DNA of 32,000 bases from the NCBI GenBank assembly GCA_027460535.1, contig JAPZAR010000006.1:60001-92000 (forward strand), in the 5' to 3' direction. The position numbers and the translations under genes are program-made. How positions within the stretch are numbered: the stretch's first letter is position 1; every line of letters begins with the position of its first letter. Shown here piece after piece: positions 10,369 through 17,733 of the stretch. Source of the DNA: Candidatus Methanoperedens sp. GTDB taxonomy: Archaea > Halobacteriota > Methanosarcinia > Methanosarcinales > Methanoperedenaceae. A model generated the notes under the pieces. The model worked only from the letters and a program-made list of their open reading frames with translations, was not told where the DNA came from and did no database searches.

Positions 10369-10403
10369 CCGTTACGGTATATTTTCAGAAATTTCCGTTA
10401 CGC
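10369..10403. repeat. Array 1 of the CCGTWACGS dyad motif (2 copies, 26 bp apart)
   Basis: CCGTTACGG at 10369-10377 and CCGTTACGC at 10395-10403. The array is intergenic, about 75-110 bp upstream of the RadA-like/PolB2 operon. Confidence 0.9.
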
Positions 10404-13571: not shown

Positions 13572-13634
13572 CCGTAACGGTAGTTTTGGCTATAAATTCC
13601 GTTACGCAATTAATTACTAAAATACCCGTAACGG
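13572..13634. repeat. Array 2 of the CCGTWACGS dyad motif (3 copies, 27 bp apart)
   Basis: CCGTAACGG at 13572-13580, CCGTTACGC at 13599-13607 and CCGTAACGG at 13626-13634. The array starts 60 bp after the PolB stop. Confidence 0.9.
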
Positions 13635-13997: not shown

Positions 13998-14076
13998 GGT
14001 ACCCGAAGAAAAAATGTCGTATAATATACCTTATACGCAGTTTTTATATACATAGAATAACAAAATATAGACTGTT

Positions 14077-14913
14077 ATGCCAGATGACCTGCCTCCAGCA
14101 TTAAAAAAACTCGAGACCGAGATGAAACTGCGGGGATTCTCAAAGCAGACCTCAAAGATGTACCTTTTCTATAACACTAAATTCCTTGAGTATATAAAAA
14201 AACCTCCCGAAGATGTAACCGAAGATGACATCAAAGAATTCCTTGCAAACAAAATAGCCGATGATCTACTTTCAAATGCTTCAATAGCATTGGTCAAATC
14301 CACCCTAAAATTTTTTTACACTGATATGCTCGGAAAAAATATTTCCATGATAAGGACACCGAAGGCGTCAAAAAAATTGCCGGTGGTCCTGAGCCGCAAA
14401 GAAATAAAACATCTGCTGGATAACACGCAGAACCTGAAGCATAAGCTCTTGATTGAGCTTCTTTACTCCACAGGGCTCCGGCTTTCGGAATGTATTAACC
14501 TGAAATACTCAGACATGGACATGAACGACGGAATCGGGTGGGTGCGCCTGGGAAAAGGCGCAAAGGATAGGATATTTATTGTTTCAGAATTGTTCAGGAA
14601 GGACCTTATGGATTACAAGGAAAAAATTCGCGCCGATGGCAAGGGTTATATTTTTTCAGTTAACGGAAAGAAAATGTCCCCGCGAGGCATCCAGCATGCG
14701 ATAAAAGTCTCAACGGAACGTGCCGGCATCGAGAAACCGGTGCATGTACACACCCTCCGCCATTCGTTCGCCACACATCTGCTCGAGAACGGTGTAGATA
14801 TCAGGAAAATCCAGAAGTTACTGGGGCATTCCAATCTGCAGACAACTCAGATATATACCCAGGTTTCATCGGAAGAGATAAAGAAGATAAAAAGCCCGCT
14901 GGATACATTGTAG
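14077..14913 (+). CDS. xerA: Tyrosine recombinase XerA (XerC/D family)
   Basis: The N-terminal SAM-like core-binding domain reads LRGFSKQTSKMYLFYNTKFLEYI. The catalytic region reads GLRLSE and HTLRHSFATHLLENGVDIRKIQKLLGHSNLQTTQIYTQV (the R, HxxR, H and Y residues). 278 aa is typical of archaeal XerA. Confidence 0.85.
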   Translation: MPDDLPPALKKLETEMKLRGFSKQTSKMYLFYNTKFLEYIKKPPEDVTEDDIKEFLANKIADDLLSNASIALVKSTLKFFYTDMLGKNISMIRTPKASKKLPVVLSRKEIKHLLDNTQNLKHKLLIELLYSTGLRLSECINLKYSDMDMNDGIGWVRLGKGAKDRIFIVSELFRKDLMDYKEKIRADGKGYIFSVNGKKMSPRGIQHAIKVSTERAGIEKPVHVHTLRHSFATHLLENGVDIRKIQKLLGHSNLQTTQIYTQVSSEEIKKIKSPLDTL

Positions 14914-14936
14914 ATATCAATTGCTCCGCAGTCGAT

Positions 14937-15224
14937 TTATTTTATCACTTCGACCATTATTATCCCGGGCATCTTCTCTTTCAGTGTTGACTCCAGTGCT
15001 GCGGCTATGGTACTTACAGGTATCTGGCATCTTCCGCATCCAACACCTTTCCTTGTTTTATATTTCCGCAGGAAATTACTGAATGTAACTGGCACCGAAG
15101 TCCTCGTGATCCTCACCTTTACGATGCCATTTGCAACATTAACCAGTTCGATATCTCCGCCGTCTGCCTGAAGGCTTTTTCGGAAATCGGACAGTATCTC
15201 ATTCAATGTTTCTGCAGATTCCAT
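14937..15224 (-). CDS. NifU C-terminal (Nfu)-like domain protein
   Basis: 95 aa. LQADGGDIELVNVANGIVKVRI, a CGRC motif and a KEKMPGI tail fit the Nfu/NifU_C pattern. Confidence 0.55.
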   Translation of the reverse strand: MESAETLNEILSDFRKSLQADGGDIELVNVANGIVKVRITRTSVPVTFSNFLRKYKTRKGVGCGRCQIPVSTIAAALESTLKEKMPGIIMVEVIK

Positions 15225-15269
15225 GATAGATAATTGCCCTCATACGTAATAATTTTCATCATGACAATG

Positions 15270-15332
15270 CCGTAACGTAATATAGTATAGATTTTTCCGT
15301 AACGGGATTAATATCTAAAAATACCGTAACGG
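15270..15332. repeat. Array 3 of the CCGTWACGS dyad motif (3 copies, 27 bp apart)
   Basis: CCGTAACGT at 15270-15278, CCGTAACGG at 15297-15305 and CCGTAACGG at 15324-15332. The array lies upstream of the NifU-like gene and immediately left of the 213-bp tandem array. Confidence 0.9.
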
Positions 15333-15360
15333 AATAAATTATATTGTTTGAAAAGGAGGA

Positions 15361-15906
15361 TAGTGGGCAGAATTGGGGATTATGGTGGTGGTAAAAAAGA
15401 ATCTTTTCTGCCCACTATAATTCGTATGTATACGAATTAAAGTATAAATAGTTTACGTTTGCTGTAAAAACCATGAATCTCATTGCGATCCATCGAGATC
15501 GACTGGATAATTTGCGGGTATGTAACACAGAAAAATTTACAGTTTGAATGCCAACCTTGCTGAGATAAGATTTTAGTGGGCAGAATTGGGGGTTATGGTG
15601 GTGGTATGTAAAAATAGTTTTTCTGCCCACTATAATTCGTATATATACGAACTAAAGTATATATAGTTTACGTTTGCTTTAAAAAATGAATTTCATTGCG
15701 ATCCATCGAGATAAACTGGATAATTTGCGGGTATATAACACAGAAAAATTTACAATTTGAATGCCAACCTTCCTGAGATAAGATTTTAGTGGGCAGGAGG
15801 GGTTTATGGTGGTGGTATATAAAAATAGTTTGTCTGCCCACTATAATTCGTATATATACGAATAAGTATTTAAGGTTTACGCATTACGTAAAATTGAAGA
15901 TTTCAT
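15361..15906. repeat. Tandem repeat, about 2.5 units of 213 bp, each with a 12-bp-stem inverted repeat and a 20-bp AT palindrome
   Basis: Units start at 15361, 15574 and 15787. Each contains TAGTGGGCAGAA, a 33-35 nt spacer, then TTCTGCCCACTA, followed by AATTCGTATRTATACGAATT. The third unit degenerates after about 15866. Confidence 0.9.
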
Positions 15907-15920
15907 AATATCAGACTTTC

Positions 15921-15983
15921 CCGTAACGCAATATTTTGATATATTTTCCGTAACGGATTAATATGCCATAAATAGCGTTACGG
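15921..15983. repeat. Array 4 of the CCGTWACGS dyad motif (3 copies, 27 bp apart)
   Basis: CCGTAACGC at 15921-15929, CCGTAACGG at 15948-15956 and GCGTTACGG at 15975-15983. The last copy abuts the TATA-like element of the small-ORF/UbiD operon. Confidence 0.9.
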
Positions 15984-15987
15984 AATA

Positions 15988-15994
15988 TTTATAT
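15988..15994 (+). promoter_or_regulatory. TATA-like element (TTTATAT) upstream of the 16019 ORF / UbiD operon
   Basis: Centred about 28 nt upstream of the ATG at 16019 with no SD, which suggests a leaderless or short-leader transcript. Confidence 0.35.
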
Positions 15995-16018
15995 GTTTCT
16001 GTAACTCATTAAGAGTAT

Positions 16019-16270
16019 ATGGCTGAGAGAAAATACACACGGTGGAAAAAATGCCTGATATGCGACGATTTTGTGAAACTGATGTTTCCCGAAGACGCCA
16101 GGGACATGCTCATAATCTACGAACCTCAGGAAGGGATGAGCGATGAATCGAAGAACTGGAAAAAGAGACAGCTTGGATATGTCCACAAGGTTTGCCTTAA
16201 GAAAGCAAATTCGATGTTAAAGATTAAATCTGTTGAACCTGGGGACAGTGGTGTTGCCGAGGTTGTATAG
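16019..16270 (+). CDS. Small Cys/His-containing hypothetical protein, translationally coupled to UbiD
   Basis: 83 aa. CLIC and HKVC could form a zinc-binding site. The stop TAG overlaps the GTG start of UbiD (ATAGTG). Confidence 0.4.
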   Translation: MAERKYTRWKKCLICDDFVKLMFPEDARDMLIIYEPQEGMSDESKNWKKRQLGYVHKVCLKKANSMLKIKSVEPGDSGVAEVV

Positions 16271-17733
16271 TGGCTTACAAAGATTTACGTGAATTTATAG
16301 AAGTTCTTGAAAAAAAAGGTCTGTTGAAACGGATCACGACCGAGGTCAGCGCAGAGCTTGAAATAACTGAAATTCTTGACAGAACAGTAAAAAACAACGG
16401 TCCGGCACTGTTATTTGAGAATGTAATGGGCTATAAGGTCCCGGTGTTGGCCAATGCCTTCGGGACTATGGCACACATGTGTCTTGCTCTTGGTGTAAAT
16501 AACCTGGACGAAATCGGGGAGAGAATCCATAACCTCCTGCAATTTGAAGCACCCTCCAGCCTGTGGGAAGGGATTAAAATGATCCCGAAGGTTGCAGAGA
16601 TCACCTCATTCCCTCCGAAACATGTGAAAAGCGGACCCTGCAAGGAAGTCACACTCAAGGAAGGCTTTTCTCTCGATGATTTTCCGATATTGAAATGCTG
16701 GCCAGAGGACGGTGGCCGCTTCATCACTCTCCCTCTTGTATTCACAAAAAATCCAAAAACCGGGAAGCAGAACGTGGGGATGTACAGGATGCAGGTCTAC
16801 GACGGCAAAACGACGGGCATGCACTGGCACATCCACAAACACGGCGCACGCGATCATACGGATGCAGGGAAGGAGGGAAAAATGGATGTCGCTGTTGCCA
16901 TAGGTGCCGACCCGGCCGTCGTCTACTCAGCCACTGCGCCGCTCCCGGACAATATCGATGAGATGATGTTAGCTGGATTCCTCAGGAAAAAGAATGTGGA
17001 GCTTGTTAAATGCGAAACTGTCGACCTCTATGTACCCGCTCATGCCGAAATCGTACTCGAAGGATACGTAGATGCAAAAGAGCGGCACATCGAAGGGCCT
17101 TTCGGGGACCATACCGGATATTATTCGCTTGCCGACGAGTTCCCGGTGTTCCATATAACCTGCATCACCCACCGCAAGAACCCGATATACCACGCCACTG
17201 TTGTTGGGATACCCCCGATGGAAGACGCATACTTCGGCAAAGCCACGGAAAGAATATTCCTTCCACTCATTAGAGCGCAGCTTCCCGAGATCGTGGACAT
17301 TAACCTTCCGGTAGAGGCAGTATTTCACAACCTCTGCATAGTCTCAATAAAAAAGCGCTACCCCGGCCATGCTAAAAAGGTCATGTTCGCCCTCTGGGGT
17401 ATGGGGCAGATGATGTTCGCAAAGACGATAATCGTGCTGGATAATGACGTGAACGTGCAGGACATGAAGGAGGTACTGTGGGCAGCAACCACACGCATGG
17501 ATCCGGCAAAGGATGTTGTAATAATCGACAAAGCACCCACCGATACACTTGACCATGCCTCGCCTCTTCCCAATCTTGGCTCAAAAATGGGTATCGACGC
17601 CACGCGAAAGGGGCCGGATGAAGGGTTCAACAGGGAATGGCCTGATGCTTTGAAAATGGATGAGGGCGTAAAAGCACGTGTCGATTCAATATGGGAAGAA
17701 CTTGGAATTAGATTTATCACTAAAACAACATAG
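16270..17733 (+). CDS. ubiD: UbiD-family (prFMN-dependent) aromatic acid decarboxylase
   Basis: 487 aa. YKDLREFIEVLEKKGLLKRI, GMYRMQVYDGKTTGMHWHIHKHGA and GPFGDHTGYY form a classic UbiD-family signature. Confidence 0.9.
   Translation: MAYKDLREFIEVLEKKGLLKRITTEVSAELEITEILDRTVKNNGPALLFENVMGYKVPVLANAFGTMAHMCLALGVNNLDEIGERIHNLLQFEAPSSLWEGIKMIPKVAEITSFPPKHVKSGPCKEVTLKEGFSLDDFPILKCWPEDGGRFITLPLVFTKNPKTGKQNVGMYRMQVYDGKTTGMHWHIHKHGARDHTDAGKEGKMDVAVAIGADPAVVYSATAPLPDNIDEMMLAGFLRKKNVELVKCETVDLYVPAHAEIVLEGYVDAKERHIEGPFGDHTGYYSLADEFPVFHITCITHRKNPIYHATVVGIPPMEDAYFGKATERIFLPLIRAQLPEIVDINLPVEAVFHNLCIVSIKKRYPGHAKKVMFALWGMGQMMFAKTIIVLDNDVNVQDMKEVLWAATTRMDPAKDVVIIDKAPTDTLDHASPLPNLGSKMGIDATRKGPDEGFNREWPDALKMDEGVKARVDSIWEELGIRFITKTT

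Follow-up and report, generated by a model that had tools for sequence, protein, structure and literature searches.

Candidate sibling small-RNA genes in a tandem array near xerA in Candidatus Methanoperedens

What is the function of a 213-bp sequence that is repeated two and a half times, with a long inverted repeat and a 20-bp palindrome in each unit, in a gap without genes? The question arises from a 32,000-nt stretch of Candidatus Methanoperedens sp. (positions 60,001 to 92,000, forward strand, of contig JAPZAR010000006.1 in assembly GCA_027460535.1), the whole of which is called the window below and supplies all coordinates given without a contig. Methanoperedens archaea (anaerobic methanotrophic archaea of group 2d, ANME-2d) carry out nitrate- and metal-dependent methane oxidation and, to our knowledge, have not yet been grown in pure culture. 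The original prediction, made on the letters of the window, placed three readings side by side: a replication or partition locus of the iteron or DNA-unwinding-element (DUE) type; an array of small structured RNA genes; and a protein-binding platform. Comparison with other genomes leads us to favour the second: the repeat units are probably three sibling genes for small regulatory RNAs, read from the minus strand and each equipped with its own promoter and operator. This reading is carried by three features: throughout the family a promoter stands at the right distance, the hairpin is followed by T-runs, and substitutions in its stem are compensatory.

The array itself is largely as it had been described. 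Tandem Repeats Finder places it at 15361-15881 (period 213, 2.5 copies, 90% matches), a repeat search reproduces the unit starts at 15361, 15574 and 15787, and the gap between the flanking genes, from 15224 to 16019, amounts to 795 bp and is free of genes. The perfect 12-bp inverted repeat TAGTGGGCAGAA/TTCTGCCCACTA is present, and in unit 1 the perfect match in fact extends over 13 nt (15360-15372 with 15406-15418); the spacer that it encloses is G-rich and 33-37 nt long, and two bases past the inverted repeat stands the palindrome AATTCGTAT(G/A)TATACGAATT (15419-15438, 15634-15653, 15845-15863). Unit 3 does leave the repeat, at about 15881 rather than about 15866. An assembly artefact, which had been feared, is unlikely, because the units differ by about 9% and arrays of two to three units occur at the same locus in other genomes. 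The tail of about 100 bp is indeed common to units 1 and 2, at 93% identity, but as a conserved entity it does not hold: it is private to this genome, and no real counterpart was found in 48 other Methanoperedens genomes. We accordingly read the 213-bp period as a recent local duplication, in units 1 and 2, of a smaller core together with a private spacer.

The real unit is this core of about 120 nt, bounded by AGGAGG and GTTTACG..TGTAAA. On the plus strand, an alignment of 50 copies from many genomes gives it the form AATAGGAGG-TAGTGGGCAG-GGGGATTATGGTGGT-A6-(T-rich)-CTGCCCACTA-CAATTCGTATATATACGAAC-AAAGTATTTATAGTTTACG-N6-TGTAAA, with conservation ending on one side at a block resembling the transcription factor B recognition element (BRE) and on the other at CCUCCUAUU. 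A covariance model built from the core alignment matches the window at 15350-15474, 15563-15689 and 15776-15898. The features of the array, on which the argument below draws, are:

15361-15881, no strand: tandem array of three family cores and two copies of a genome-specific spacer (Tandem Repeats Finder, repeat search, covariance model)
15469-15569, no strand: the genome-specific spacer (the tail), with a second copy at 15684-15782; only these two copies in the window match
15348-15418, minus strand: predicted small RNA 1, about 71 nt, with hairpin, UCCUCCU tail and U4; ends predicted
15360-15418, minus strand: hairpin of unit 1, with a 13-bp stem and a 33-nt loop, AAGAUUCUUUUUUACCACCACCAUAAUCCCCAA on the minus strand
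15351-15359, minus strand: CCUCCU, anti-Shine-Dalgarno-like (15354-15359), then a U4 run (15351-15354)
15419-15438, no strand: palindrome of unit 1, AATTCGTATGTATACGAATT, putative operator between TATA box and start point
15443-15457, minus strand: promoter of unit 1, with TATA box (15443-15450) and BRE-like GTAAAC(G) (15451-15457)
15531-15633, minus strand: predicted small RNA 2, about 100 nt, with hairpin (15570-15636) and a pyrimidine-rich tail to U5 (A5 on the plus strand, 15531-15535); ends predicted
15634-15672, minus strand: palindrome (15634-15653) and promoter of unit 2, with TATA box (15658-15665) and BRE-like GTAAAC (15666-15671)
15744-15844, minus strand: predicted small RNA 3, about 100 nt, with hairpin (15787-15843) and tail to U5 (A5 on the plus strand, 15744-15748); ends predicted
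15845-15881, minus strand: palindrome (15845-15863) and promoter of unit 3, with TATA box CTTAAATA on the minus strand (15867-15874) and BRE-like GTAAAC (15875-15880)

Copies of the core are dispersed over the genome of origin (2.9 Mb in 37 contigs), where the covariance model finds 9 matches on 6 contigs. Outside the window this genome has three further single copies (C11:76061-76191, C30:60360-60479 and C13:4187-4309), each of which matches only the first 76-112 nt of the 213-bp unit. The BLAST comparison of one unit with other genomes, which had been proposed as a check, finds copies in all 36 genomes of the same genus that were searched and the core in none of 24 genomes from other families, while the covariance model extends the count to 49 of 49 same-genus genomes with 2-11 copies each. 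The model also matches three sister genera within the family (E-values 1e-14 to 1e-24) and gives weak matches to divergent members of similar architecture in two other families of the order; these E-values are rough. The copies are single or arrayed, with array periods of about 125-145, 170-215 or 275 nt. Viral contigs hold no match to the element, and metagenome contigs only 15; a loose hairpin pattern run over all genomes returned mostly chance palindromes in bacteria. The suggested check against Rfam leaves the element uncatalogued there: over 14500-16800, at E up to 10, no family matches, the best score being 23 bits against a 100-bit threshold, from an unrelated Tetrahymena snoRNA. As a separate observation, the single copies on C11 and C30 have in common a second conserved block, CAACCCCTTTATTTCnnTTGGAnAAATAAA..., about 250 nt upstream (L004 ~1260-1330; L005, minus strand, ~1800-1850), which contains a CCAACC/GGTTGG hairpin.

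The proteins encoded next to the copies fall into few clusters. The arrangement seen in the window, xerA followed by the array and ubiD, recurs in at least nine genomes; a convergent pair of genes for a THUMP-type methyltransferase and a class-III aminotransferase, the whole gap of which is filled by the element, in 7-8 genomes; and a copy directly after hdrB in four. Further neighbours are housekeeping genes (MCM, IlvD, TatC, enolase), and copies stand at orthologous sites in 4-11 species. From such recurring sets of neighbours we conclude that the element is old and positionally stable, and not a spreading transposon.

The promoter gives the element its direction in our reading. In 55 of 65 copies the minus strand has a TATA box, with no more than one mismatch to TTTAWATA, at a distance of 18-27 nt from the base of the hairpin; by the same criterion the plus strand has one in a single copy of 65. 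The 55 include members of a subfamily in which the sequence between TATA box and hairpin is unrelated. The box of unit 1 ends 24 nt before the hairpin base, and its promoter region (15443-15457) is the most conserved block of the family. Its form matches that of the tRNA promoters of the same genome, the BRE of which GTAAAC resembles, and conservation reaches outward no further than the GTAAAC block, also where a copy is without the dyad partner of that block. At the other end, on the same strand, T-runs of at least four follow the hairpin within 30 nt in 21.5 of 36 independent flank clusters, whereas A-runs do so in 7.2 of 36, and shuffles give 10.3 +/- 2.5. CCTCC or CTCCT follows within 14 nt in 38 of the 65 copies, and the UCCUCCU tail of unit 1 matches the 3' end of 16S rRNA (GGAUCACCUCCU), with identity to its last six bases; CCUCCU is there the anti-Shine-Dalgarno sequence.

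The hairpin provides the second line of evidence. Its arms are nearly invariant within the main family; in divergent members they are replaced and yet complementary (AAGATAAGCGGG/CCCGCTTATCTT, TGATGAGCGG/CCGCTCATCA, TTGTGAGCAGGTT/AACCTGCTCACAA, and further GATGGGCAGG/CCTGCCCATC and GGTGGGCAGGGGA/TCCCCTGCCCACC), the whole stem being exchanged at loci L192, L188, L181 and L203, and all of these members keep a plus-strand loop that is first G-rich and then A-rich. Covariation of the stem, another proposed check, appears as changes on both sides at 8 of 11 modelled pairs among 87 aligned copies, a value reached by none of 500 shuffles, in an alignment that was fitted to the model, so that the count leans towards structure. 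The non-compensatory changes in unit 3, which had been taken as a weak sign of a DNA-level element, affect only the two outer pairs, and the divergent members are fully compensatory. Loop length varies from 27 to 50 nt while the stem stays complementary, which argues for a hairpin in a single strand rather than a duplex site for a rigid dimer. Folded as minus-strand RNA, unit 1 gives the 13-bp stem, an open, unpaired C-rich loop and a free UCCUCCUUUU tail, with z = -5.6; the loop contains a conserved C-rich stretch of 15 nt, ACCACCAUAAUCCCC, preceded by a U-run.

A divergent subfamily with the same architecture exists in the genome of origin (C7:93042-93163 and C7:93197-93317, minus strand; C18:26620-26737, minus strand). 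Its plus-strand loop is GGGGAGTGGGGGTTA, its arms are different, it has no TTCG palindrome, and its TATA box stands at 21-23 nt; the two copies on C7 are in tandem, 155 nt apart, and other families of the order have copies like these (L181, L190).

No conserved open reading frame (ORF) was seen on either strand when the aligned copies were read. Two sets of candidates were set aside. Small plus-strand ORFs, starting with GTG after AGGAGG or with ATG in GATTATGG, stop after three codons in L004, and the differences in loop length between copies shift the frame. An ORF of 24 aa, MNLIAIHRDRLDNLRVCNTEKFTV, is found in both copies of the tail (15473-15547 and 15686-15760, plus strand), and its start falls exactly 23 nt past a plus-strand reading of the TATA box, as in a leaderless mRNA; we regard it as due to chance, because the tail occurs in no other genome and the four codon differences between its copies all change the amino acid, none being silent.

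The palindrome adds independent support for the direction. Its form TTCG-[AT]8-CGAA occurs 8 times in the genome of origin, against about 0.4 expected by an estimate from base composition, and sites of the form (G)TTCG-[AT]8-CGAA(C) lie beside TATA boxes of protein genes at C15:20765, C31:26746, C24:106809, C11:233837, C25:34808, C27:107136 and C4:76834. The first four stand outside the family, beside the starts of genes for a 335-aa Cys-rich protein, a 406-aa radical S-adenosylmethionine (radical-SAM)/SPASM protein, a 68-aa DUF1858 protein and a 171-aa ORF. The order at all four is TATA box, 2-7 nt, palindrome, ribosome-binding site and start codon; the minus strand of the element has the same order, with 6-7 nt between TATA box and palindrome, and since four protein-gene promoters share this order and spacing, the minus-strand direction is supported independently. 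Because several protein genes also have it in the interval from TATA box to start codon, TTCG-N8-CGAA is probably an operator, and its distribution suggests that one regulator controls the radical-SAM, DUF1858 and Cys-rich genes together with the RNA genes, as a candidate regulon. The proposal of a protein-binding platform thus holds for the 20-bp palindrome, operator-like in its place between TATA box and start point, and not for the rest of the unit. The site on C27 is followed by a degenerate look-alike of the element that has no hairpin.

Put together, these features suggest the following mechanism. Each unit would be one copy of a non-coding small-RNA gene of about 120 nt on the minus strand, beginning with the BRE-like GTAAAC and the TATA box; 6-7 nt further on, TTCG-N8-CGAA would offer a regulator its operator between TATA box and start point; and transcription would start at the base of the 10-13-bp hairpin. 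The RNA would present a large open loop, with the U-run and then the C-rich stretch, and a pyrimidine-rich 3' tail (UCCUCCU in unit 1), with a short U-run as terminator. By analogy with the archaeal RNAs discussed below, the exposed loop and tail would probably pair with the G-rich ribosome-binding regions of mRNAs and lower their translation, and the RNA would be switched together with the radical-SAM/SPASM, DUF1858 and Cys-rich genes under the same operator. We infer the production of these RNAs, their ends and their targets from the sequence. If the reading is true, every genome of the genus has a conserved, operator-controlled, multi-copy family of small RNAs, and with it a handle on post-transcriptional control; the common operator offers a candidate regulon, and the covariance model can be used for annotation. 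It would also account for puzzling repeats of about 100 bp, single, tandem or inverted, that are otherwise mistaken for origins, ends of invertible segments or transposon remnants.

A bolder version of the idea, which we hold to be distinctly unlikely, would make the family a regulated multi-copy mimic of the 16S rRNA 3' end (a hairpin and then ..AUCCUCCU), with a second C-rich stretch in the loop that is likewise directed against ribosome-binding sites. Release of one repressor would set off genome-wide competition with ribosomes for Shine-Dalgarno sequences, a translation brake specific to Methanoperedenaceae and co-regulated with radical-SAM and iron-sulfur-related genes, and, between convergent genes, this DNA would in addition stop transcription from both sides.

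Several known systems resemble parts of this picture. In Methanosarcina mazei, sRNA154 and sRNA41 are intergenic RNAs with stem-loops that carry an anti-ribosome-binding-site sequence in unpaired loops and mask the ribosome-binding site of their target mRNAs; they are lineage-restricted and condition-regulated (PMC5867862). The element shares with them the intergenic stem-loop and the order Methanosarcinales, here as a predicted RNA only, but it has no detectable sequence or Rfam relation to them and differs in having one hairpin with a very large loop and a CCUCCU tail, 2-11 copies that are often in tandem, and, in its promoter, a conserved palindrome as putative operator. Among bacteria, LhrC1-5 of Listeria and RsaE/RoxS are sibling small RNAs encoded in several copies, some of them tandem; every gene has a promoter and a terminator of its own, and C-rich loops of the RNAs pair with Shine-Dalgarno sequences. 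Several near-identical genes, some of them tandem, and exposed C-rich loops (in our case predicted) are common to both, whereas the bacterial genes have sigma-70 promoters and hairpin-plus-U terminators, those of Methanoperedens a BRE/TATA promoter and a predicted oligo-U stop, and the sequences are unrelated. Operators between TATA box and start point are known from archaeal repressors of the NrpR, MDR1, Phr and TrmB types, and the palindrome is like them in lying directly downstream of the TATA box, reaching the start point and being common to several promoters; unlike them, TTCG-N8-CGAA matches no known regulator that we could assign. Repetitive extragenic palindromes (REPs) occur in hundreds of copies, have no promoter and are mobilised by REP-associated tyrosine transposases (RAYTs). 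Like REPs and bacterial interspersed mosaic elements (BIMEs), the element is a short hairpin repeat in intergenic gaps, often after genes or between convergent genes and sometimes tandem; it differs from them in its few copies, its positions kept across species, its TATA box at a fixed distance and the lack of a neighbouring gene for a Y1 transposase.

A number of results weigh against small-RNA genes on the minus strand. Our literature search found no published description of regulatory small RNAs in Methanoperedens. Because the arms are nearly invariant in the main family, the covariation comes from a dozen divergent members, as aligned to the model. Wobble pairs leave the strand ambiguous: in the middle of the stem, 4-6 copies have a pair that reads A.C on the plus strand and G.U on the minus; plus-strand G.T is found in the main stem of 3 copies and, at the palindrome's innermost pair, in 33 of 80. 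The TATA region, which has BRE-like A-rich blocks on both sides, is close to symmetric, so that outward transcription on the plus strand is possible. T-runs after the hairpin are absent in about 40% of copies, and the conserved run of U5-U8 inside the loop, about 22 nt past the predicted start, could end transcription early. T6 is found 439 times on the sense strand of long ORFs, against 1224 times for A6, without depletion beyond base composition; T6 is therefore no absolute stop and the internal U-run not fatal, and by the same token the argument from T-runs as terminators is weakened. Complements of the 15-nt loop stretch with at most two mismatches occur in the genome of origin at about chance frequency, and this search yielded no specific mRNA target for the loop.

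Some of the alternatives lean on the surroundings of the array, of which the principal genes are:

14077-14913, no strand given: xerA, encoding a tyrosine recombinase (protein scan of the window)
14937-15224, minus strand: NifU-like gene, one flank of the array gap
16019-17733, plus strand: gene for an 83-aa protein and ubiD operon, the other flank of the gap
16019-16270, plus strand: first gene of this operon, for the 83-aa protein (CxxC and HxxC motifs)

A gene for a family-B DNA polymerase lies 2 kb from the array.

The alternative that survives best, though we regard it as unlikely, is a DNA-level cassette without functional RNA: a portable module of regulator-binding site and promoter combined with a two-way oligo-T stop or insulator between genes that are often convergent, in which the A-run/T-run loop within the GC-rich inverted repeat would act as bidirectional terminator. 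The placing of the copies speaks for it, since many fill the whole of a convergent gap; the plus-strand gene ends 0-23 nt before the element at 13 loci, and a minus-strand gene ends 2-45 nt after it at about 10. So do the constant order of A-run and T-rich stretch in the loop, the near invariance of arms and palindrome in the main family, and the occurrence of the palindrome in protein-gene promoters. A terminator, however, has no need of a TATA box at the constant distance of 18-27 nt or of a conserved C-rich loop of 15 nt, and the replacement of the stem by unrelated complementary arms around a loop of 27-50 nt fits a single-strand hairpin and not the duplex site of a dimer. Arrays of two to three units also occur where no gene runs in, as in the window.

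We are highly doubtful of a structured RNA on the plus strand, part of a 3' untranslated region or leader, which would consist of AGGAGG, a hairpin with G-rich loop, a palindrome hairpin and a TTTACG..TGTAAA hairpin and be driven by read-through from upstream or by a duplicated promoter at 15293-15345. The 13 loci at which the element begins 0-23 nt past the stop codon of a plus-strand gene suit this idea, as does the slightly more stable plus-strand fold (-23.6 kcal/mol); the innermost palindrome pair would be U.G in those 33 of 80 copies, the third dyad is mostly closed by plus-strand G.U, and a copy of the promoter region of the 83-aa gene lies just upstream of unit 1. It is set back by the good upstream plus-strand TATA box that only 1 in 65 copies has and by a plus-strand T-run within 30 nt in just 2 of 65, while arrayed copies, and those 300-580 nt from any upstream gene, are without an evident driver. 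The mid-stem pairs of 4-6 copies would be A.C mismatches, and the conserved block ends at a BRE-like motif that is sensible on the minus strand only.

A mobile or recombination element is very unlikely, be it a hairpin of the miniature inverted-repeat transposable element (MITE) or REP-like kind that a Y1 transposase moves, or a set of accessory or pseudo-dif sites of XerA. In its favour are the several copies with their hairpin, the four Y1 transposases encoded in the genome, the distance of 450 bp between array and xerA, and the TCGTATA/TATACGA half-sites that the palindrome has in common with a dif-like site at 14016-14043. Yet copies are few and keep the same positions in many species, none of the nine adjoins a Y1 transposase gene, viral contigs have no copy, and the core has no terminal repeats or target duplications around it, its inverted repeat being internal and the core reaching 60 nt beyond. 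As to XerA, the palindrome spans 12 nt from CG to CG against 20 nt in the dif-like site (8 bp closer), and it is present in every copy of the family, most of them far from xerA, rather than unique to this locus. The related doubt, that the unit might be an end of an insertion sequence or a member of a MITE family, finds no support in the internal inverted repeat and the orthologous sites in 4-11 species.

A replication origin, iteron or partition locus, although tandem repeats, an A/T-rich segment, inverted repeats, a gene-free gap and the polymerase gene nearby had pointed that way, is scarcely credible given 2-11 dispersed copies per genome, many of them single elements of about 120 nt between convergent housekeeping genes, a 213-bp period private to this genome, and the lack of any Orc1/Cdc6 in a scan of the 17 larger window ORFs. 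The xerA gene and the dif-like site at this locus are marks of the terminus, not of an origin.

The dif-like site at 14016-14043 reads ATGTCGTATAA-TATACC-TTATACGCAGT, with 11-bp arms (8 of 11 positions match) and a 6-bp spacer, and lies 33 bp upstream of xerA. The 83-aa protein has no match in Pfam, and other Methanoperedens genomes keep its gene as the first of the ubiD operon; the mRNA is apparently leaderless, since 23 nt separate the ATG from the end of the TATA box at 15988-15995.

A second repeated motif, CGTWACG, occurs 11 times in the window against 1.4 expected. The boxes form four phased groups with a spacing of 26-27 nt (10370-10402, 13573-13633, 15271-15331 and 15922-15982), which bracket polB, xerA, the NifU-like gene and the array. 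The NifU-like gene and the 83-aa/ubiD operon have divergent promoters, and the last two groups, each a triplet, sit on these:

15271-15331, no strand: CGTAACG three times, phased at 27 nt, in the interval from small RNA 1 to the promoter of the NifU-like gene; the second triplet, 15922-15982, stands on the promoter of the 83-aa gene

These two triplets form a direct repeat of about 45-100 bp (D4) that flanks the array, and CGTWACG boxes also stand beside copies of the element at the xerA-ubiD locus elsewhere (L009, L014, L015, L017, L022 and L034).

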